From: Anaerolineae bacterium | GTDB taxonomy: Bacteria; Chloroflexota; Anaerolineae; Epilineales; JAHCIE01 | Length of the DNA stretch: 64,000 nucleotides | Direction: 5' to 3' | Assembly (NCBI GenBank): GCA_039810085.1 | Contig: JBDHWG010000009.1 | Span: forward strand, 12,609-76,608 | In this document: positions 1-14,875 of the stretch, piece after piece | How the letters are laid out: each line of letters opens with the position of its first letter | Position numbering within the stretch: the stretch's first letter is position 1 | Notes under the pieces: model-generated | Database searches by the model: none | What the model was told of the DNA's origin: nothing | What the model saw: the letters and a program-made list of their open reading frames with translations, nothing else | Position numbers and translations under genes: made by a program

Positions 1-16
1 TAGAGTTATGCACCCG

Positions 17-67
17 TGAATAACCAGTTATGCAAGAATGAATATCTAGATATTCACTGGTGAATAT
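17..67. promoter_or_regulatory. Operator-like palindrome TGAATATCTAGATATTCA (39-56) flanked by additional TGAATA(A/T) half-sites (17-23, 61-67), immediately upstream of the minus-strand HTH gene 73-426
   Basis: Perfect 18-bp inverted repeat plus direct half-site repeats read directly in sequence; position matches an autoregulatory operator for the adjacent HTH protein. Confidence 0.4.
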
Positions 68-72
68 CAGCC

Positions 73-426
73 TCAAAATCTCTGTGTCACTCGGTATTTG
101 AGGCGATAGACATTCGTTTTTCCCTGACCTCTTCGCTCAATTTCCAACAATCCCGCTTCCTGCAACTCACTAATGGCACGCGCAATCGTCGGCTGAGACG
201 AGCCGATGTCTTTCGCCATGACGTCTTGCCCTGGGAACACGAGATCATTGTGCCAGGCGTACGAGAGGAGCTTGCTGTACACGACCTTCGCGTTGGACGA
301 GATACTTGGATTGTTCAAGATGAAGTTGGGAATCTGGGTGAAACCACCAGCGCTGATCGGGTCAAACCCTTCAAGGATGATGTTCTGACGTTCTTGAAAT
401 CGATTGATCTGGGCAAGTTTCTCCAT
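73..426 (-). CDS. Winged-helix/HTH_36-like DNA-binding protein (replication-initiator-like N-terminal domain)
   Basis: 117 aa; motif FTQIPNFIL...AKVVYSKLLSYA...FPGQDVMAKDIGSSQPTIARAISELQEAGLLEIERRG typical of PF13730-type HTH found in plasmid/phage Rep-like proteins. Confidence 0.55.
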   Translation of the reverse strand: MEKLAQINRFQERQNIILEGFDPISAGGFTQIPNFILNNPSISSNAKVVYSKLLSYAWHNDLVFPGQDVMAKDIGSSQPTIARAISELQEAGLLEIERRGQGKTNVYRLKYRVTQRF

Positions 427-461
427 GTTGTTGGGTTGCTGGTTTGCTGGCTAACTGGTTT

Positions 462-848
462 TTAGACACGTCTCCCGAGATACTCATCTACTGCTTCCTG
501 CAACACTTCATAATCGTTTCTATCTGTTTCAAGCGCAAGCCGCTTGATTGCCTTGATGCTCTCCGATGAGAGGTAGCTGGTAAACTTCTTTCCTGGTGAA
601 CTGACTTGCGGGCTTCCCTGCTTGATGGGTTGCCGACTTACCGGCTTCCCTCTTTGCTGGATAACTGGTTTGCTGGCAACCTGTCTTACTGGTTTAGAAG
701 GAATCTGGTTAACGGGTTTTATGGTTTGCGGACTAGTCGGCAAAACAGCGATCTGACTTTCTTCTTTACTGGTTTGCTGGTTTACAGGTTTGCTGGTAAA
801 CAGCTGCTGATCTAGGGCTGCTAGTCTTGAAAATGGGTCGTTGCTCAT
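462..848 (-). CDS. Hypothetical protein with KPV(N/R/I/S)Q tandem repeats and C-terminal ribbon-helix-helix-like segment
   Basis: 128 aa; repeats KPVNQ/KPVRQ/KPVIQ/KPVSRQ; C-term SESIKAIKRLALETDRNDYEVLQEAVDEYL resembles RHH/CopG-like DNA-binding fold; 12-bp gap to upstream ATPase gene. Confidence 0.4.
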   Translation of the reverse strand: MSNDPFSRLAALDQQLFTSKPVNQQTSKEESQIAVLPTSPQTIKPVNQIPSKPVRQVASKPVIQQRGKPVSRQPIKQGSPQVSSPGKKFTSYLSSESIKAIKRLALETDRNDYEVLQEAVDEYLGRRV

Positions 849-860
849 GGGCCTCCTTTC

Positions 861-1742
861 TTATTTTTTCTTTTTCGGCTTGCCAATATTATGTAATCGT
901 TCCTCGGCTGCGGTTTCAACCGTGGCGCGGTCAATGACTTTCTTGTCGTTGAGAAACGCTAAGAGTAAGGAATTGTCAGCCAAGATATTTGCTTCACGGG
1001 GAACACCTTCTGAGTGTCTAAAAAGAGCATCGAGCGCGGCCGGCTCGAATGGATGTGCTTGATTGCCACTGGCCACCCGCCAACGAAAATCTATCATCTG
1101 AGCGAGTTCCTCGGTGCCAATTGGATCAAGCGTCGAGGCCATGGCAATGCGCGATCGGAAGTTACGCGCCATTGGATGGGTGATCTTATTGCGCAGCTCC
1201 TCTTGTGCGAAGAGGACGAGCTGCAACAACTTCATCTCATTCGTTTCATAGTTGATTAGTTGACGCAGAAGCTCAAGTAAGGGGAGTCTGAGGGTCTGTG
1301 CCTCATCAATGATGAGTACAACCGTCTTGCCTTCCTCCACAGCCTTGTCGTAGAGAAACATCTTGAAGATGTCGAGATTGTCCTTGTACGACCTGGCAGT
1401 CTTATAGAGCTGAAACTCGGCGATGATCGAGCGGAGCAGATTGTTGGTGGTGGGATAGTTGGGGTTCGTCAATAAGACGGACTGGTAGCCTTTGTCTAGG
1501 AATTTCTGATGGAGTAGGCGAGCCAAGGATGATTTTCCAACGCCAGTGTCGCCAAAGACTATGGTGAGGCCCTTTTTCGAATCGACCGTGAATTCAGTTT
1601 TTCCAAGTGCAGTGGAGTGGATCGGGGTGAGGAAGAAGTAGCGCGGGTTGGGAACCGTGCTAAATGGCTCTTCTTTCAGACTGAAGTAACTTAGGTAGGG
1701 GACTGGCATAAGTTGCGCGAACTCACATACCAGCTTACGCAA
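861..1742 (-). CDS. AAA_22 family ATPase (ExeA/TniB-like, ORC/Cdc6 clade)
   Basis: 293 aa; Walker A GDTGVGKSS, Walker B VVLIIDEAQ, N-terminal FSLKEEPFSTVPNPRYFF motif typical of ExeA-like ATPases. Confidence 0.75.
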   Translation of the reverse strand: MRKLVCEFAQLMPVPYLSYFSLKEEPFSTVPNPRYFFLTPIHSTALGKTEFTVDSKKGLTIVFGDTGVGKSSLARLLHQKFLDKGYQSVLLTNPNYPTTNNLLRSIIAEFQLYKTARSYKDNLDIFKMFLYDKAVEEGKTVVLIIDEAQTLRLPLLELLRQLINYETNEMKLLQLVLFAQEELRNKITHPMARNFRSRIAMASTLDPIGTEELAQMIDFRWRVASGNQAHPFEPAALDALFRHSEGVPREANILADNSLLLAFLNDKKVIDRATVETAAEERLHNIGKPKKKK

Positions 1743-1784
1743 CTTGGGCCATTCATGTCAAGAAGGGAAATGAGAAACAAGACT

Positions 1785-2033
1785 TCAAAGCAAATCTTCC
1801 AGTTGCTCAGAAGAAAGACCGGCGTCTTTGATGATGCGCATTTGAAGACCTCGGCCAAGAGTGCGGTTGTGAATAGGGATAACCAGGGATTGAGGATGTC
1901 CAGGTTTCGACATTGAGAGATGGCTTCCGGTTTGCCTGCGTTTTATGAAACCGGCACGCTCAAGTGCTCGGATAAGTTCGGTGGGACGAAGAGCTTTCAG
2001 CCGGTCGGTCACGTCGGTCCTTGACGCGATCAA
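1785..2033 (-). CDS. hicA: HicA family toxin (mRNA interferase)
   Basis: 82 aa; LRPTELIRALERAGF...RQTGSHLSMSKPGHPQSLVIPIH..L..G.L..I.KDAGL matches HicA/YcfA fold; TTG start at 2033 (GTG alternative at 2012). Confidence 0.75.
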   Translation of the reverse strand: MIASRTDVTDRLKALRPTELIRALERAGFIKRRQTGSHLSMSKPGHPQSLVIPIHNRTLGRGLQMRIIKDAGLSSEQLEDLL

Positions 2034-2277
2034 GCCAGGCTTCCAAGTGCTCGGGGATTGTCCGTCCGTCTTCTTTATCCACCTCTAGCACCAATTGGAG
2101 TGCGTCCTCGATCATCGTCAAAGCCTCATCAATGGTTCGCCCCTCAGAGTACGCAGGCGGATAGTCAGCCACTTCGATGAGGTAGCCGCCTTCTTTCTCA
2201 GGGGTCAATCGGTAGGTCATACCGTCTTTGGTAATTTGGATAATTTCTGCTGGTTGTTTTTGGACCATATGCGTCAC
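1960..2277 (-). CDS. hicB: HicB family antitoxin
   Basis: 105 aa; YRLTPEKEGGYLIEVADYPPAYSEGRTIDEALTMIEDALQLVLE typical of HicB RNase H-like domain; overlaps hicA by 53-74 nt. Confidence 0.7.
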   Translation of the reverse strand: MTHMVQKQPAEIIQITKDGMTYRLTPEKEGGYLIEVADYPPAYSEGRTIDEALTMIEDALQLVLEVDKEDGRTIPEHLEAWLDRVKDRRDRPAESSSSHRTYPST

Positions 2278-2336
2278 TGCCTTTCAGCCACTATTATAAC
2301 ACGCGGCAGCTACCGCTGGCTTTCTTCCGATCCGGA

Positions 2337-2365
2337 TTGACAACGAAAAATAGGGTACATATACT
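2337..2365 (+). promoter_or_regulatory. Near-consensus sigma70-type promoter (TTGACA-N17-TATACT) upstream of DUF2321 gene
   Basis: TTGACA at 2337-2342, 17-nt spacer, TATACT at 2360-2365; about 80 nt upstream of ATG 2446. Confidence 0.4.
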
Positions 2366-2445
2366 TCTATAGCGACGAGGGATTTGTTGTACTAGCAAGC
2401 ATATTAAAGGCAAAATAACAGAAAGAGCGATGTCCGAGAGGCAGC

Positions 2446-2940
2446 ATGAGTAGAGGGTATTACGATACTGCACAGATTTGTCTCAACGGCCACCTCATCA
2501 ACGAGCGGGTCAATACGTTCCCCCCACATAACCAGGAGTATTGTTCTCTTTGCGGAGCCAAGACAATTACGAAGTGTCTGCATTGTCAGGCTGACATTCG
2601 AGGGGCGTATGACGTACCCGGAGTTGCGGTTTTTGGACTGCGGATTGCCGTTCCCAGATTTTGCCATGCCTGTGGTCATGCATACCCGTGGACAGAAGCC
2701 AGATTGCAAGCAGCAGAAGACTTGGCCGACGAGCTTGATAAACTCAACGATGAAGAGAAAACTTATCTGAAGGACAGCGTCAACGATATTGTGAGAGATA
2801 CTCCGCAAACACCGGTAGCAGCAACGCGATTTAAGCGCTTGGTTGCGAAAGCTGGCTCAGAAGCAGCATCGATGTTTCGTGATCTTCTTGTTGACATAGC
2901 AAGCGAAACCGCCAAGAAAATAATCTGGCCCGGGCCGTGA
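2446..2940 (+). CDS. DUF2321 family zinc-ribbon protein
   Basis: 164 aa; N-terminal MSRGYYDTAQICLNGH...CSLCGAK...CLHCQADIRGAYDV...FCHACGHAYPW matches the DUF2321 Cys-rich signature. Confidence 0.7.
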   Translation: MSRGYYDTAQICLNGHLINERVNTFPPHNQEYCSLCGAKTITKCLHCQADIRGAYDVPGVAVFGLRIAVPRFCHACGHAYPWTEARLQAAEDLADELDKLNDEEKTYLKDSVNDIVRDTPQTPVAATRFKRLVAKAGSEAASMFRDLLVDIASETAKKIIWPGP

Positions 2941-3062
2941 TTATGACAGCGAGTTCACTTCGATGTCCTCGAAAAGAACTCCGATTGACCCCTAGCTGAG
3001 TTCCGTTATAATCTGCCGACGTAACCGGCAAAGAACCCACTTCGATAGACCCGAGGACAAGC

Positions 3063-4343
3063 ATGGCCGAACCAACGAAATATGTCATGATGGACGATGC
3101 CGCTGAAATCCTAGGCTTGTCACCCGTCCGGATCCGAAAGCTGATTAAAGAGGGTGCCATTCGGACAGCCGGATCCAGCCGTGCACCCTTACTCGCCTGG
3201 GATGATGTTTGTCGGATAGCAGGAGCTCAACGTCCTCCTTGGGCACTTCTCACAAATGAGCTTGTTCATGGCTCTGTCTCGCCAGAAGGCTTGTTTCTCG
3301 CGAAACTAGAATCCGCGGATACCAACACTTCATTCGAGACCAACCAGGTCGCCAAAGGTCACTGCATTGACTGGATGAAAAAGATGCCGGCCGGTTCAGT
3401 TCAAACCGTTGTGACCTCTCCTCCATACTGGGGTGTACGCCGCTATAAAGGGGAGCAGGAGGTGCTCTGGTCTGATGGTACACGATGCGCATTTGGAGCA
3501 GAGGATACCCCTGAAGCGTATGTCCGGCATACAATGGATATCCTTAGGCACCTCAAGCGTGTGCTTCGCGATGATGGCGTCATCTGGTGGAATATTGGTG
3601 ACTCGTACCAAACGCGAACACACATTCGAGAGGGGAGTGTCGAACGGCTCCATGCCCTTGATGGACGTCGACAAGATGGGTGGAAGGACTATCCCCACAA
3701 GCGCTATTCAGCAGGGCACGATTACCTCAAGGACAAGGATCTCACCCTCGTGCCCTTCGCGGTCGCGATGGGTGCGCAACATTTAGGCTTCTGGGTGCGC
3801 TCAGTCATCATCTGGAGCAAAGAAAACACACTCCCTGAGCCGGTAAAAGATCGGCCGACCACCTCGCACGAGTATATTTTCATGCTAGTTAAGTCCCGCT
3901 TCTATTACTACGCGCATGACGTTGCTAAGGACCAAACCCGGTCAACGAAATGGGCACCCGAAGATATAGACGGCCAGCTAAAGAATTGGCGCACCGTTTG
4001 GACATTTGCGACTGCTGGGAGTGAAGACCGCAATCATACAGCAGCATTTCCTGAAGAGTTACCCAAGCGATGCATAGTAGTCAGTTCGAGACCGAACGAT
4101 CTCGTCTTTGATCCCTTTGCCGGTTCAGGAACAACGCTCGTAGTGGCAAAACGTCTTGGTCGTCAATACTTCGGCTGTGATCTGAGCGACGAATATGTTG
4201 ACGAGGCGTCTGCTCGACTGGAGCGAGAACGAGGAAGCCTTCAAGCCACACTTGAAGATGCGCTCCCACCAACAGAACTTGAGCGTGTTATAGACCAAGA
4301 GTCTGAAGCTCAGCCAAACAGAGAGCAGCTGCCACTCTTGTAA
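3063..4343 (+). CDS. DNA methyltransferase (beta-class N4-cytosine/N6-adenine) with N-terminal HTH_17/excisionase-like domain
   Basis: 426 aa; N-term DAAEILGLSPVRIRKLIKEGAIRT HTH; motif IV TSPPYWG precedes motif I FDPFAGSGTTLVVA (beta permutation). Confidence 0.85.
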   Translation: MAEPTKYVMMDDAAEILGLSPVRIRKLIKEGAIRTAGSSRAPLLAWDDVCRIAGAQRPPWALLTNELVHGSVSPEGLFLAKLESADTNTSFETNQVAKGHCIDWMKKMPAGSVQTVVTSPPYWGVRRYKGEQEVLWSDGTRCAFGAEDTPEAYVRHTMDILRHLKRVLRDDGVIWWNIGDSYQTRTHIREGSVERLHALDGRRQDGWKDYPHKRYSAGHDYLKDKDLTLVPFAVAMGAQHLGFWVRSVIIWSKENTLPEPVKDRPTTSHEYIFMLVKSRFYYYAHDVAKDQTRSTKWAPEDIDGQLKNWRTVWTFATAGSEDRNHTAAFPEELPKRCIVVSSRPNDLVFDPFAGSGTTLVVAKRLGRQYFGCDLSDEYVDEASARLERERGSLQATLEDALPPTELERVIDQESEAQPNREQLPLL

Positions 4344-4358
4344 GCTGTTGAGGAGAAT

Positions 4359-5678
4359 CTATAAAACTGTTCTAAGCCAGGAGCCCAGTCGAGTAACTTC
4401 TGCCGGTATCTGTGACAGGTCGAAGCCATACCCATATACCATACGGTCATCCGCTGTACGGGCTTCCTGGAGGGTCGCAGTCCCATCCGTGAGGAAGATG
4501 AAGCCTCCAATGGGCGCGTTGTATGCGCTCATGTAAGCCGCAAGCTGGTAATGATCACTGCTATCCGGTTCAAACTTATACTTCACATCAAGAAGTGCCG
4601 CTGTCGTCTGAAGGGTTGTGGACGGACGAATAACGATGTCTGGCTGAAGATTGGCGTTGAATCTGCTTGGCACGGCTCGCTGGTACATAAATGGGCGCCC
4701 GCCCAACCGCACATCATCGCGCCATGAGCGAACGGCGTACATTGGCTCAAGCGCACGCGCAACAATGTTGCGAACGGCTCGCTCAAACAACCGCTCCATC
4801 GGAAGACGCAACGGCGGATACTCAATCTCCGGATGACTCGCTTGGGTTAATGCAAATCGTTCCAGTAGAAGGCGACAGAAGCGCAACACCGGTTCATAGT
4901 ATTCACGGTTCGGCGGAATCCCTCCCCGCTCCTCCAGCAATCGACAGACCGACACCGCCTCGGCTGCGGATGCATACTCGGTGATCGGTGGTAGCGTAAG
5001 CATCTGAGAATACAGTCGTTCGCGGGTTGATGCGGTTAGGGTATCTGCAGAGGCGGCAAGAATAGAGAGCGTTGTTGCAATCACCTTGTTCAGGGAAATG
5101 TCGAGGGTATACCGAACAATACGTTGATCTATCAGGAGTTGACCTCGTTCAATGCTGGTCGTCAGACTCTCGAAAAAATCAATTTCCCCCTCGGGGAACG
5201 CAGAGAGAATCCGTCGGTCCTGATCACCACCCGCCCAACCAAGACGCACAACCTCCTCCAACGTACTCAGCAATTGATCCACCAAGACATCAAGAATGGT
5301 GACGTCGGCTTCAAGGCCATAGTACACCTGCTGATCGGGTATGGTCACGGTTGGTTCATCGGCGAGAAGAAGCAGGCGAACCAATGAGACCGGCCCGCAC
5401 TTGGCATCAACCTGGAGAATAACCCCGTCTCCCAGCAACTCGGTGGTTACGGTGGGTGGACTCTTGGCCGCAATCGTGTGATAGCCGGCAACGGTGGAGA
5501 GGGAAATATCAACAACGTCGAGGGCAAGTGGGTTGATAACTAAGGGCAATTGATCTGTGGGAACTAGATACCGACCAGTCTCGCTAATACGAATCCAGCG
5601 GACGAGCTTACCGCTTCTCGTCACGGCGTTTTCAATGGCAGCAAATTGAGTGTCGGGGGCCATACCAGTATTCGGCAA
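4359..5678 (-). CDS. mcrC: McrC-like 5-methylcytosine-specific restriction system nuclease subunit
   Basis: 439 aa; C-terminal PD-(D/E)xK signature PDIVIRP...LLDVKYKF; 1-bp gap to mcrB stop. Confidence 0.75.
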   Translation of the reverse strand: MPNTGMAPDTQFAAIENAVTRSGKLVRWIRISETGRYLVPTDQLPLVINPLALDVVDISLSTVAGYHTIAAKSPPTVTTELLGDGVILQVDAKCGPVSLVRLLLLADEPTVTIPDQQVYYGLEADVTILDVLVDQLLSTLEEVVRLGWAGGDQDRRILSAFPEGEIDFFESLTTSIERGQLLIDQRIVRYTLDISLNKVIATTLSILAASADTLTASTRERLYSQMLTLPPITEYASAAEAVSVCRLLEERGGIPPNREYYEPVLRFCRLLLERFALTQASHPEIEYPPLRLPMERLFERAVRNIVARALEPMYAVRSWRDDVRLGGRPFMYQRAVPSRFNANLQPDIVIRPSTTLQTTAALLDVKYKFEPDSSDHYQLAAYMSAYNAPIGGFIFLTDGTATLQEARTADDRMVYGYGFDLSQIPAEVTRLGSWLRTVL

Positions 5679-5679
5679 T

Positions 5680-7380
5680 CTATGATCGGAATGTAGCCAT
5701 CAACGGATCAACCTGATCGGTCACAACCGATTCCTGGCGTTGCGTCAAAAACAACTGAAGAGATGGTCGCAAAACGGTCATATACCAGTCCATCAGGTCT
5801 GGTTTATCCTTGATGTCGACGAAATGGGCGTGTCCGATTGGATACTTGGTCAACTCGGTGATCTGCCGCATGACGGCAACGATCTCCATTGCATCGTCCT
5901 CTGTGAATGTACTGTGATCCACAAGAAAATCAAACATCTGCTTGTAGCTAACGGCAAAATCGACAGTGCGAAATCGGGAGAGCAATGCGTAGTCGAGTGG
6001 GTACGTCAAGCGGTCGAGTGTGTTCATGGTTGCAATGAGCAGCAGTTGTTTGGGGATGACAATGTTGCCCCCGCCGTGTGGTAGCGGCAAAGACGTGCCC
6101 CGATAGCCCATCTCGATCAGATGAAACCCCTCTCCAAAGACGGCTGCAACATTGGCCCGATTCAGTTCTTCAATGATCACCACTGATGGTCGATCAGCAT
6201 TACGCTGACAATGCCGAAGAAACAGTCCGGGTTCAGCGGCGAAGTCGAGCGCACCTTGGGTCAGTTTCGGTGTGAGACGTTGGATAAAATCGCCATACCG
6301 CCATTCTTGATGAAACTGGACATGGAGAACGCGCTCCGCCCAGAGAGCGGGATCTGCTGCCTCGGTCGCCTGAAGGTAATCCTCCGCAATATGGACTGCG
6401 CTATACGACTTGCCCGTTCTGGGAGCGCCCGTCAACAGAACGTTCAGTTGACCCTTCTGGATTATTCGTCGCGTAAGTTCAATTGGATCAGTTGCATGCT
6501 CCTGGCTAATCCCCAGAAGCTGCGCGTTAAATTGCATTTGCGCCATGCTACTTGCCTCTCGTAGTCGGATCTCAAAAGGATCGACCTGGCCAAACAAGAT
6601 AAGGTGGTTGTATTCCTCTTCGTCACGATCTTGTTCGAAATCGTCTGTCTGAAGGTTAGGGGCTGATGATCGTTGCGTAAAAAGAAAATACAGTTCCTCG
6701 TCCGAAAGCGAGAGTCGTGACCGCACCAAATGCGCAAGCTGGTCAAAGTTCGGCTGGACCTCGAAAACTTCATTACGGCAACACCAAATGACAAATGGAA
6801 TCCAGGGGATACTACAAAGCCTATGCTCATCAGGCCCAAAGAAAATCGGTGCTGCATCAAGGTATTTAGGTCGCAGTCGAAGGCGCGCACCTTGACCTTG
6901 TTCAGCCTCGATAAGCTCGAAGAGAAACTCACGCGGTCTCAAACCGTATCGTTGCTCCTGCTTATCGAACCAATCGTTCTTGAGTCTGGTCCAGATAACG
7001 CTTCGGTTACTGTCCTCTTTGCGCAGGAGATACCGCCGGTTATCACTGATTGGGAAAAATAGGGGGTAGCCAACAGTTCTTGAAACGCCTTGAGGTGCAG
7101 AGGGGAGGGGCGGTTGATTATTCTGAAGGGTGCCATTTTCAACGCTTAATTGCACGAGTGAACTAAATGAGTCGCTGATCCACGCTAGATATCGAAGTGC
7201 GTCCGTCGGCTTGTTCGCTGACGTGATTTTTACCTCGCTGGCAATATTCCCCTCGATTCTAGCACCGTCATACTTCAATGCTAGAAAGACGATGATATCA
7301 CTATGTGCTGTTCCGAAGAGCGAGCGAGCTGCTCGGGCAATGAGTTTTGGTTTCAAGCGAAACACGGGACCGGACCTCAT
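5680..7380 (-). CDS. mcrB: McrB-like AAA+ GTPase subunit of type IV restriction system, with unassigned approximately 300-aa N-terminal DNA-reading domain
   Basis: 566 aa; LLTGAPRTGKS Walker A, VVIIEELNRANVAAVFGEGFHLIE and LLLIATMNTLDRL motifs characteristic of McrB. Confidence 0.85.
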   Translation of the reverse strand: MRSGPVFRLKPKLIARAARSLFGTAHSDIIVFLALKYDGARIEGNIASEVKITSANKPTDALRYLAWISDSFSSLVQLSVENGTLQNNQPPLPSAPQGVSRTVGYPLFFPISDNRRYLLRKEDSNRSVIWTRLKNDWFDKQEQRYGLRPREFLFELIEAEQGQGARLRLRPKYLDAAPIFFGPDEHRLCSIPWIPFVIWCCRNEVFEVQPNFDQLAHLVRSRLSLSDEELYFLFTQRSSAPNLQTDDFEQDRDEEEYNHLILFGQVDPFEIRLREASSMAQMQFNAQLLGISQEHATDPIELTRRIIQKGQLNVLLTGAPRTGKSYSAVHIAEDYLQATEAADPALWAERVLHVQFHQEWRYGDFIQRLTPKLTQGALDFAAEPGLFLRHCQRNADRPSVVIIEELNRANVAAVFGEGFHLIEMGYRGTSLPLPHGGGNIVIPKQLLLIATMNTLDRLTYPLDYALLSRFRTVDFAVSYKQMFDFLVDHSTFTEDDAMEIVAVMRQITELTKYPIGHAHFVDIKDKPDLMDWYMTVLRPSLQLFLTQRQESVVTDQVDPLMATFRS

Positions 7381-14290: not shown

Positions 14291-14875
14291 TCAAAATCCC
14301 AGGCCACGCTCTTTCAGACTTGTGAAACCGCTTCGGCCAACAACAATGTGGTCGAGCAACTCCACTTCAAGGATCCGCCCGGCTTCAACTAGGGTCTTGG
14401 TCACCCGAACGTCATCTCTGCTGGGCGTCACATCGCCCGATGGGTGATTATGAACCATGATAATGGCGTGGGCGTTGTCGAGAATGGCCGGCCGAAACAC
14501 CTCAGCGGGGCGAACGGGGCTGCTATTGAGGGTGCCCTGGTACACCATCGGACAGGAGATGATCCGGTTCTTGGTGTCGAGTGTAATGACGCGGACCTGT
14601 TCTTGGTCAAGATCCTCCATCTCAACCCGAACAAATTCATAGGCATCACGGGGACTGGTGATCTGAAGTGCATCCTCCCGAGGTCGCCCGGTCTTTGCCT
14701 CATAAAGGCGTGAGGCTTCGGCGATAAACCAGCGTAGGAGGTGGACAAACTCGGCTTCATCGGGCCGCAAGAAACTCATTTGGGCTTCATGGACTCGTCG
14801 GACTCGTCGTTCTTGGGGCAGCGGCATAGTCGAGCCAGTATAGCATATGGGGTGTAGGACTGGTGTTGATATCAC
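14291..14875 (-). CDS. radC: RadC-like JAB/MPN domain protein
   Basis: 194 aa; JAMM motif HNHPSGDVTPSRDD and C-terminal LKERGLGF; start uncertain (GTG 14875 or ATG 14827). Confidence 0.8.
   Translation of the reverse strand: MISTPVLHPICYTGSTMPLPQERRVRRVHEAQMSFLRPDEAEFVHLLRWFIAEASRLYEAKTGRPREDALQITSPRDAYEFVRVEMEDLDQEQVRVITLDTKNRIISCPMVYQGTLNSSPVRPAEVFRPAILDNAHAIIMVHNHPSGDVTPSRDDVRVTKTLVEAGRILEVELLDHIVVGRSGFTSLKERGLGF

Follow-up and report, generated by a model that had tools for sequence, protein, structure and literature searches.

A candidate maintenance core of an Anaerolineae mobile element with an ExeA-like AAA+ ATPase in the position of ParA

We suggest that three genes at the edge of the window (the whole 64-kb stretch of DNA that was analysed) and the DNA adjoining them are the maintenance core of a mobile element, i.e. 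a plasmid or an integrative element, in which a type-Ib-like partition cassette with an AAA+ motor is combined with a replication gene and an oriV-like region. We give this reading a probability of roughly 0.6. Partition systems are classed by their motor, which is a Walker-type ParA, an actin-like ParM, a tubulin-like TubZ, or none. In the cassette described here, an ExeA/MuB-like AAA+ protein would take the place of ParA. With somewhat less than even odds, we raise the broader possibility that such ATPases represent an unrecognised class of DNA-segregation NTPases beside ParA, ParM and TubZ, that they are matched to their RHH adaptor by an exchangeable N-terminal peptide, and that the centromere lies in the coding sequence of the adaptor's disordered linker. 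We found no AAA+/ExeA partition ATPase in the literature that was searched, outside which a prior description is possible. The features are as follows, in window coordinates:

861–1709, minus strand: AAA+ ATPase of the ExeA/AAA_22 family, 282 aa from the ATG at 1709; proposed partition NTPase in the ParA position
462–848, minus strand: candidate adaptor and centromere-binding protein, 128 aa; N-terminal peptide MSNDPFSRLAALDQQLF, low-complexity linker and C-terminal RHH-like domain at about residues 88–128
574–797, no strand assigned: octamer array of about 28 in-register octamers where the adaptor gene encodes the linker; candidate for a centromere-like site
427–459, no strand assigned: second octamer cluster of four octamers, ACCAGTTA GCCAGCAA ACCAGCAA CCCAACAA; proposed second binding array and possible operator of the HTH gene
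73–426, minus strand: winged-helix protein, HTH_36, DnaD_N/RepA_N-like, 117 aa; proposed origin-binding replication protein
4–69, no strand assigned: three 22-bp palindromic units side by side; the near part of an origin-like region, which runs past window position 1

An ExeA-like ATPase and its ParA-type counterparts

The three minus-strand genes noted in the first-pass annotation are indeed co-directional ORFs, and encode an AAA_22 ATPase, a 128-aa middle protein and a 117-aa HTH_36 protein; no sigma-70 promoter was called by the scanner directly upstream of the ATPase gene. The ATPase ORF spans 861–1742 from a TTG, and the database form starts at ATG 1709. Its description as an ExeA/TniB-like ATPase without a transposase agrees with a Pfam match to AAA_22 (E 3e-21) and with the gene content of the operon. 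The Pfam matches comprise AAA_22, AAA_16 and similar families and none to CbiA, AAA_31 or ParA, which places the protein outside the ParA/MinD deviant Walker A group. It has the AAA+ fold of the initiator/TniB type, and its nearest folds are those of the DNA-binding AAA+ proteins ORC/Cdc6, MuB and TnsC, in a ranking that is soft at the pLDDT of 69 of the predicted model. In PHROGs, the ATPase matches a "DNA transposition protein" (E 2e-22); a sequence search of the PDB with the ATPase profile gave no match. With the Orc1/Cdc6 model TIGR02928, the ATPase reaches 18.7 bits where the cut-off requires 181.3, and the protein ends after the AAA+ lid without a winged-helix domain, which sets it apart from Orc1/Cdc6.

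The closest resemblance by sequence is to ExeA/GspA, MshM and the XrtA/PEP-CTERM ATPase (TIGR03015), and this similarity extends over the full length (E 4e-51, 261/269 model positions). The score of 174 bits is about half of the curated cut-off of 324.5, which leaves the ATPase outside that family. Characterised ExeA-family proteins work in secretin, pilus or EPS assembly and not on DNA, and homologues of the window ATPase have been named "general secretion pathway protein A" by JGI. Unlike ExeA/GspA, however, the window ATPase has neither a peptidoglycan-binding nor a transmembrane part, and there are no GspE, secretin or EPS genes nearby; its neighbours are the RHH adaptor, the HTH_36 gene and HicAB. 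Secretion and EPS contexts are found only in relatives with ≤41% identity, and a midpoint-rooted NJ tree places these relatives in its other half. Thus, an ExeA or TniB system with conserved partners, which the first-pass annotation had named as the outcome that would speak against its view, did not emerge for this ATPase clade. In the partners of ExeA/XrtA-type ATPases, too, a short helix-like motif, EEKLLxLIR, stands at the N-terminus. By analogy with ParA and MuB/TnsC, the clade of ExeA/AAA_22 ATPases to which the window protein belongs may act by binding DNA.

The similarity in fold to MuB and TnsC, a related ATPase (L109) that passes the Pfam TniB threshold, and the HicAB, MTase and McrBC genes that adjoin the module would all suit a defence or transposition cassette, in which the ExeA/TniB-like ATPase serves as a sensor or as a transposase target-selection factor. 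We regard this as highly improbable. Unlike MuB, TnsC and TniB, the window ATPase has an RHH adaptor as its apparent partner, and the conserved partners are this adaptor and the HTH_36/Rep-like gene, with no transposase or TniQ either in the operon or among the conserved neighbours of relatives. Moreover, PADLOC made no defence assignment for the module and returned only 40-residue P-loop matches (mad8) and generic HTH matches, and the defence genes beside the cassette are not conserved in relatives. Transposase fragments are present near one related locus (L177) and are likewise not conserved.

The gene order itself points to partition. About 40 related metagenomic cassettes have the same HTH_36 gene in third place, behind genes for an ATPase and an adaptor. 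The ATPase in the first position is of the ParA type (AAA_31/CbiA) in 19 distinct cassettes and of the AAA_22 type in 18. The first-pass annotation held that the combination corresponds to no named module; instead, its architecture of ATPase, RHH-like adaptor and repeat array appears to be of the type Ib partition kind, and a true ParA has the ATPase position in about half of the cassettes related to it. The ParA-linked cassettes are presumed partition systems, an assignment made by homology only.

A modular adaptor and octamer arrays in and after its gene

The middle protein contains the repeats KPVNQ (twice), KPVRQ, KPVIQ and KPVSRQ and a tail that resembles Pfam RHH models below threshold (Antitox_RHH, 0.012; RHH_1, 0.099). 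When the isolated tail domain and its three homologues were searched, 4/4 matched Antitox_RHH, again below threshold (best E 3.4e-5). A profile search of the PDB with the tail gave no match, and Pfam gave nothing usable for ten adaptor proteins of other types. Across the related cassettes, the adaptors are modular. At least five types of C-terminal domain occur, each with both ATPase classes, while the N-terminal peptides sort by ATPase type: ParA-linked adaptors begin with MSKKxL..NELxGSAFF and similar peptides and AAA_22-linked adaptors with MGIYDQLxNLDK, MADYSQLMNLEKK or MxNDPFxxLxxxDQxLF, the start codons in relatives being mechanically assigned. For instance, a homologue of the window adaptor (P0123) is encoded directly after a ParA gene, and the nearest homologue of the window RHH tail is a ParA partner that carries the same octamer, AACCAGCA being present in the linker of the ParA-linked homologue L175.

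The repeats and the RHH-like tail had both been described in the first-pass annotation, the repeats as a feature of the protein. At the DNA level, however, the period is 8 nt. Lag autocorrelation of the middle gene gives z = 7.2 at lag 8 and 7.5 at lag 16 versus 1.4 at lag 3, and six other genes in the window have no signal at lags 8 and 16 (z ≤0.8 and ≤1.3, respectively). The consensus of the array is ACCAGyAA on the operon strand. The second cluster fills the intergenic space and adjoins the start codon of the HTH gene, and an equivalent second cluster is present at the same position in nearly every related cassette inspected. At about 40 loci, DNA repeats with a period of 4, 8 or 12 lie in or just after the adaptor gene and are absent from the ATPase and HTH genes. 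The repeat motif (GCTAGCAyG, CAATCGAy, GAACGAAC, GGGAAGnA, TATGAAnT or ACCAGCAA) tracks the type of the adaptor C-terminal domain and not the type of the ATPase. An origin of the 8-nt period in selection on an 8-aa protein repeat was considered and rejected because lags 8 and 16 exceed lag 24, because the same octamers run on into non-coding DNA, and because the motif follows the type of DNA-binding domain across loci. On the sequence evidence, the KPVxQ repeats are a by-product of the DNA octamer array and not primarily a protein feature. An array within a coding linker is also a warning that what looks like a short repeat in a protein can be the mere reflection of sites in the DNA.

In the type Ib system of TP228, the parH centromere and the OF operator consist of ACTC tetramer boxes with regular 4-bp spacers and are coated by the RHH protein ParG (PMC3130281), the flexible N-terminal tail of which activates ParF (PMC7308502). 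The window cassette is similar to this ParF-ParG-parH system in that an NTPase gene is followed by a gene for a small, predicted DNA-binding adaptor, which follows the same plan of tail, linker and C-terminal domain with its below-threshold RHH matches. It also shares with TP228 an extended series of short boxes that recur every 8 bp. The arrays at 574–797 and 427–459, together with the co-variation of motif and domain, fit the expectation that a type Ib centromere is a short-repeat array matching its adaptor, and sister cassettes have a real ParA. By contrast, the NTPase of the window is an ExeA/AAA_22 AAA+ protein unrelated to the ParA/MinD deviant Walker A fold, and the array lies inside the adaptor coding sequence and downstream of it rather than upstream of the operon.

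RHH partition proteins such as ParG double as repressors (PMC3130281), and the octamer cluster that adjoins the start of the HTH gene, both in the window and in related cassettes, would be well placed for repression. Conjugation genes in relatives also fit a mainly regulatory module, in which the RHH protein, like omega, would globally repress the genes of the element, the HTH/rep gene among them, and the ATPase would have an accessory role that has nothing to do with positioning, e.g. in conjugation or excision. This alternative is distinctly unlikely in our view, since it accounts neither for the constant translational proximity of an NTPase gene to the adaptor gene nor for an adaptor N-terminus that changes with the class of NTPase; moreover, an operator would need far fewer octamers than the roughly 28 in such arrays. 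The two functions can be combined in one protein: omega of pSM19035 is an RHH protein that binds centromeres, regulates copy-number and TA genes, recognises 7-bp heptads and works with a ParA-type ATPase. The window protein is like the delta-omega system in that an RHH-type protein is predicted to have short-repeat arrays at several places, an ATPase partner and possibly a rep gene to regulate. Unlike in pSM19035, a regulatory role is suggested only by the position of the 427–459 array.

The HTH_36 protein and the palindromes beyond its gene

The first-pass annotation described the third gene as replication-initiator-like. Its 117-aa product matches Pfam HTH_36 with 41.5 bits against a cut-off of 25 (E 1e-10), can be aligned from end to end with the RepA_N N-terminal domain and is structurally closest to DnaB/DnaD/RepA_N domains; most of its homologues carry a precomputed RepA_N annotation. 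The protein thus has the N-terminal winged-helix origin-binding domain of RepA_N and DnaD proteins and lacks the C-terminal domain that recruits host replication proteins. It may be an incomplete initiator because a domain for recruiting a helicase or primase is absent. In Chloroflexota MAG relatives, the third gene encodes a longer protein with DnaD_N/HTH_36 or DnaA_N.

The first-pass annotation had also reported a perfect 18-bp palindrome upstream of the HTH gene. The palindrome itself is there (TGAATATCTAGATATTCA, 39–56) and is the sole perfect one of 18 bp in the window, but it lies, together with the half-sites in 4–69, downstream of the HTH stop codon (73–75) and, thus, at the 3' end of the operon. 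These coordinates led us to reject the palindromes as upstream operators of the HTH gene. Each 22-bp unit is an inverted repeat of a 9-bp half-site (RGTTATKCA / TGAATAWCN) with a 4-bp spacer. Palindromes directly follow the stop codon in 64 unique related loci, and the two half-sites change together. They also co-vary with the recognition helix, SQPTIARA occurring with TATTCAC and SKSTVNRA with TTCCCAC.

Beyond the palindromes, related loci have 15-bp direct repeats, then an A/T tract and, in many cases, a DnaA box. At least three copies of ATAYNNAG at 15-nt spacing are present in 47/64 loci against a background of 0.13. A DnaA box lies between +139 and +190, with its orientation fixed, in about 15/64 unique loci, versus about 0.5 expected. 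For the element in the window, the continuation of the origin-like region can be read on an identical contig (L002), and no DnaA box was found within one mismatch. The palindromes at 4–69 look like origin sites rather than upstream operators. As in RepA_N initiators (pSK41 RepA NTD, PDB 4pql/5kbj) and DnaD/DnaB, repeated sites that are probably cognate lie beside the gene and are followed by an A/T-rich, putative unwinding region. Unlike in RepA_N, the HTH protein is the DNA-binding domain alone, with no C-terminal effector domain, and the sites are palindromes 3' of the gene and not direct iterons within it.

Another reading is that the ATPase and the adaptor serve replication initiation and not segregation, with the RHH protein recruiting an ORC/Cdc6- or DnaC/IstB-like AAA+ remodeller or helicase-loading factor and the small HTH_36 protein, which has no recruitment domain of its own, binding the origin. 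Although this is the alternative to which we give most weight, it is improbable. ParA is not a replication factor, and in half of the cassettes a bona fide ParA has the same slot, adaptor C-terminal domains and arrays. In addition, the HTH gene separates the repeat arrays from the A/T-rich part of the origin, and seven loci in four distinct elements have the HTH_36 gene and the origin without an adjacent ATPase.

Proposed model and distribution of the module

In the partition model that we favor, the 128-aa protein would be a centromere-binding adaptor, the C-terminal RHH-like dimer of which coats the two arrays of ACCAGyAA repeats with an 8-bp period, i.e. one within its own linker-coding sequence and the other adjoining the next gene, while its N-terminal peptide engages the ATPase. 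By analogy with ParA and MuB/TnsC, the ATPase would assemble on DNA with ATP, and the adaptor peptide would stimulate hydrolysis and release. This cycle would position or separate copies of the element. Expression of rep may be coupled to this adaptor, too, through the array that adjoins the HTH gene. The HTH_36 protein would be a stand-alone origin-binding domain of the DnaD/RepA_N type that binds the three palindromes just 3' of its own gene, and these sites would lead into an oriV-like region with the 15-bp direct repeats, the A/T tract and, in many relatives, the DnaA box. Comparison of the loci shows the order of the genes, the alternation of ParA and AAA_22, the modular build of the adaptor and the co-variation of repeat motif with domain type and of recognition helix with half-site; from such synteny and co-variation we infer that the proteins bind DNA, that the ATPase is stimulated, that copies are segregated and that the origin fires.

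If the model is correct, an AAA+ motor has been swapped with ParA while adaptor domains and centromere repeats were kept, which would add a class of partition systems. The module would then also be a natural experiment on the minimal needs of a segregation motor since the adaptors used by the two motors are alike in all but a short N-terminal peptide. Furthermore, it would link the ParA ratchet with the partner-stimulated release of MuB/TnsC from DNA, which so far have been compared by analogy only.

The context supports the earlier suggestion of a mobile-element cassette, and the PADLOC matches lend nothing to the defence role suggested alongside it. GC content breaks at about 20 kb; the replicon is high in GC, and the module lies inside an island of low GC. 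Among relatives, T4 coupling proteins, an integrase and Replic_Relax are encoded. The element in the window is apparently integrated, and its cassette may currently not act on a free replicon. Rfam found nothing credible on the flanking contigs. A scan of a viral collection with the HTH profile gave only two weak loci, and a phage origin is, therefore, unlikely. Among PLSDB plasmids, megablast with window positions 1–6000 gave no match, as did tblastn of plasmids with the HTH protein; with the ATPase, the plasmid homologues were all EPS- or PEP-CTERM-linked and had ≤35% identity. Because these searches gave no match to the module, no known plasmid can be cited as a model. Metagenomes, by contrast, hold >1000 homologues of the ATPase and >800 of the HTH protein, mostly 65–80% identical. 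Since the module is abundant there and absent from 72,556 curated plasmids, it appears to mark a large family of mobile elements that is as yet uncultured and probably belongs to Chloroflexota and other soil bacteria; the putative replication origin of this family can now be recognised by sequence.

Proposed architecture and the ATPase slot

Based on the comparisons reported here, the simplest reading of the three-gene module is a partition-type cassette with a replication module after it. The former would comprise the ATPase, an RHH adaptor (the RHH call being sub-threshold) and repeat arrays, with an AAA+ ATPase in the position of ParA, while the replication part would comprise an HTH_36 origin binder and an oriV. 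The operon consists of three closely packed genes, all on the minus strand:

861-1709, minus strand: ATPase, 282 aa from the ATG at 1709 (the database form); the ORF reaches the TTG at 1742
462-848, minus strand: adaptor, 128 aa, second gene
73-426, minus strand: HTH_36 protein, 117 aa, third gene

In Pfam, the ATPase belongs to AAA_22 (E 3e-21) and the third protein scores 41.5 bits as HTH_36, where the cut-off is 25; the RHH matches of the adaptor are all below threshold. The ATPase aligns end to end with the NCBIfam model for the XrtA/PEP-CTERM-associated (ExeA-like) ATPase at 174 bits against a cut-off of 324.5. Its Walker A, Walker B and GxPR sensor motifs are invariant across 22 homologues, and its AF2 model is moderate (pLDDT 69).

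The cassette was followed in 80 metagenome loci fetched with the HTH protein, plus exact look-up loci. Upstream of the HTH_36 gene, the related loci carry an ATPase gene and a gene for a protein of 120-210 aa. In this sample, which includes many short contig fragments, the ATPase is of the ParA type (AAA_31/CbiA) in 19 distinct cassettes and of the AAA_22 type in 18, the latter mostly 31-40% identical to the window ATPase and in one case 72%. Both genes are missing in four distinct elements (seven loci). L148, L151, L152, L155, L133, L162 and L169 retain HTH_36 together with the origin-like repeats but lack an adjacent ATPase; the putative replication part can thus exist without the partition part. 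In L148 and L151 the ORF upstream of HTH_36 starts MCGRFGLS, and in L133 and L141 the adaptor is reduced to a 70-aa remnant of its C-terminal domain.

Searching species genomes with the ATPase recovered close relatives from Chloroflexota MAGs, at 61-74% identity, and the gene order there is the same: ATPase, adaptor-like protein with overlapping start, and a longer Rep-like protein that carries HTH_36/DnaD_N (a DnaA_N domain in one case). ExeA-like ATPases at 41% identity or less (Omnitrophota, Planctomycetes, Desulfobacterota) lie beside GspE-like ATPases or other partners, and distant ones on curated plasmids are located in EPS loci. A crude, midpoint-rooted neighbour-joining tree separates the cassette-linked ATPases from the secretion-linked ones, one half each; the cassette-linked half also holds one Desulfomonilaceae group with a different partner. 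At the distant ExeA-like loci L022-L066, from Omnitrophota, Planctomycetes and similar MAGs, the gene after the ATPase encodes either a protein of ~200 aa that begins with a conserved ..EEKLLxLIR.. motif or a GspE-like ATPase. Engaging ExeA-family ATPases through a short N-terminal helix on the partner encoded downstream may be general, and the adaptors of the cassette may have borrowed this mode.

A modular adaptor and its DNA repeat arrays

The N-termini of the adaptors, for which start codons are mechanical ORF calls, follow the ATPase class: ParA-linked adaptors have basic N-terminal peptides (e.g. MSKKxL...NELxGSAFF), and in AAA_22-linked adaptors the start is MGIYDQLxNLDK, MADYSQLMNLEKK or MxNDPFxxLxxxDQxLF, the last in the clade of the window. 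By contrast, the C-terminal domains are of several types, at least five of which occur with both ATPase classes; the ...VTFVRLTPEEKxQLADIVYTYKRQG... tail is ~80% identical between L096 (AAA_22) and L136 (ParA). The tail type of the window has three database homologues, one of which (P0123) is encoded immediately 3' of a ParA gene; all four tails of this type match Antitox_RHH, each below threshold.

The alternation of ParA and AAA_22 together with this modular adaptor is less consistent with an ATPase acting in replication initiation, or with a mainly regulatory module, than with the partition-type cassette.

The adaptor gene and its downstream spacer (427-848) have a strong period of 8 nt (autocorrelation z = 7.2 at lag 8, 7.5 at lag 16 and 1.4 at lag 3), and no such period was seen in the window genes for the ATPase, the HTH protein, the methylase and McrBC. 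The KPVxQ amino-acid repeats are DNA repeats, arranged in two clusters:

797 to 574: array of ~28 in-register octamers, consensus ACCAGyAA
459-427: second cluster of four octamers, touching the HTH start codon

In ~40 related loci the adaptor region has periods of 4, 8 or 12 nt, not 3 nt, and in most of them the two clusters are at the same two positions. The repeat motif tracks the C-terminal domain type of the adaptor, not the ATPase class.

Repeat motifs and the adaptor types or related loci in which they occur
GCTAGCAyG: VTFVRLTPEEK type, ParA and AAA_22 cassettes alike
CAATCGAy: KPRGFYITE type
GAACGAAC: KIRHTFDIYKDQ type
GGGAAGnA: L012, L014, L177
TATGAAnT: L007, L178
AACCAGCA: ParA-linked homologue of the window's own tail

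The adaptor and repeat arrays have the same layout as the TP228 partition system, in which the RHH protein ParG activates the ParA-type ParF through its flexible N-terminal tails and coats arrays of ACTC boxes separated by regular 4-bp spacers (PMC3130281, PMC7308502). Because the second array abuts the HTH start codon, the arrangement suggests that the adaptor may also regulate the HTH gene, which is plausible since RHH partition proteins are known as repressors.

The HTH_36 protein and the origin-like region

The first-pass annotation placed a perfect 18-bp palindrome upstream of the HTH gene. The palindrome (39-56) is indeed perfect, and the 64-kb window has no other perfect palindrome of this length; its position is 3' of the HTH stop codon. 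It belongs to three adjacent 22-bp units, in each of which a 9-bp half-site is repeated in inverted orientation:

4-25, 26-47 and 48-69: 22-bp units

Identical metagenome contigs continue beyond window position 1 (1-842 of one, L002, is the reverse complement of window 1-842), and the window edge therefore splits the origin-like region in two. On these contigs, the three palindromes are followed by an A/T-rich stretch with three ATAYNNAG repeats and a TTTTAAAAAA tract, then by a GC-rich non-coding region, and then by small ORFs and a PIN/RHH toxin-antitoxin pair.

Across 64 unique related loci, 3-5 palindromes of 22 bp always lie directly 3' of the HTH stop codon. At least three ATAYNNAG repeats are present in 47 of the 64 (background 0.13 per 260 nt), most commonly spaced by 15 nt, with an A/T tract 3' of them. 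A DnaA box (TGTGGATAA, at most one mismatch) in a single orientation at +139 to +190 occurs in ~15 loci versus ~0.5 by chance; none with at most one mismatch was found in the window's own element. Together, palindromes, repeats, A/T tract and DnaA box read as a putative theta-type origin. The half-site differs by lineage, its two arms changing together, and the predicted recognition helix varies along with it at its start.

Recognition helices and half-sites
SQPTIARA: TATTCAC
SKSTVNRA: TTCCCAC
KSQGWVSQQ: TATTAGT
HVSTVSRA: CTTGCAC

This co-variation is strong comparative evidence that the HTH_36 protein would bind the 22-bp palindromes. The family has more than 800 homologues at ~65-75% identity, nearly all of 115-130 aa. 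In PHROGs (best E 6e-15), the protein aligns with phage replication initiation, DnaD-like and O-like proteins over their N-terminal ~100 residues, and in a PDB profile search four RepA_N N-terminal domains rank first with weak E-values (0.03-0.06). Because the protein corresponds to the DNA-binding domain alone of known initiators, a partner protein is possibly missing.

In the Chloroflexota MAG relatives L010 (7559-8839) and L009 (7709-8881), the third gene encodes 390-426 aa; the L009 product has an N-terminal DnaD_N/HTH_36 region and the L010 product a DnaA_N domain near its C-terminus. These are fuller Rep-like versions of the 117-aa protein. In related loci (e.g. L096, L100, L125), a conserved element of the form GAGGCT-ATTTT-AGCCTC or GAGGCT, inverted or direct depending on the locus, separates the palindromes from the 15-bp repeats ~70-100 nt 3' of the HTH stop; it is missing from the window's own element. 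The GC-rich non-coding stretch (~650 nt; L002 960-1600, where L002 minus is the window plus strand) has long-range inverted repeats and folds at z = -5.3. It is preceded by a promoter-like TTGACA-17-TACAAT (L002 1632-1604) directed at the origin-like region, and has no Rfam match and no homologue among the other loci. One possibility is that this stretch is a structured RNA, perhaps linked to replication control.

Genomic setting

The GC content is 47-54% over 1-20 kb of the window and 62-68% from 20 kb on, with a sharp break at ~20 kb. Ordinary envelope glycosylation genes lie on the high-GC side, whose genes include MFS, PMT_2 glycosyltransferase, GT2, LPG_synthase_TM and YfhO; on the low-GC side there are a toxin-antitoxin pair, restriction-modification genes, McrBC, RadC and many ORFs without a Pfam match. 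Given this break and the ordinary genes beyond it, the module appears to sit in an acquired island, which is probably an integrated element; neither a tRNA gene nor a clear att site turned up. Directly upstream of the operon, 1785-7380 is a cluster of defence/addiction genes:

1785-2033: HicA
1960-2277: HicB
2446-2940: DUF2321
3063-4343: N6_N4 methyltransferase
4359-5678: McrC-like
5680-7380: McrB-like AAA_5

Were the module itself a defence or transposition cassette, the ParA/AAA_22 alternation and modular adaptor would fit less well; PADLOC lends defence no support, and a conserved transposase partner was not found.

The cassette is absent from PLSDB plasmids and nearly absent from IMG/VR. 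Its relatives harbour type IV coupling proteins, a relaxase-like gene, an integrase with an excisionase-like HTH_17 protein, or Replic_Relax. RadC-like JAB domain genes are common on conjugative elements, and one such protein is encoded at 14291-14875 (E 1e-43), within the low-GC island.
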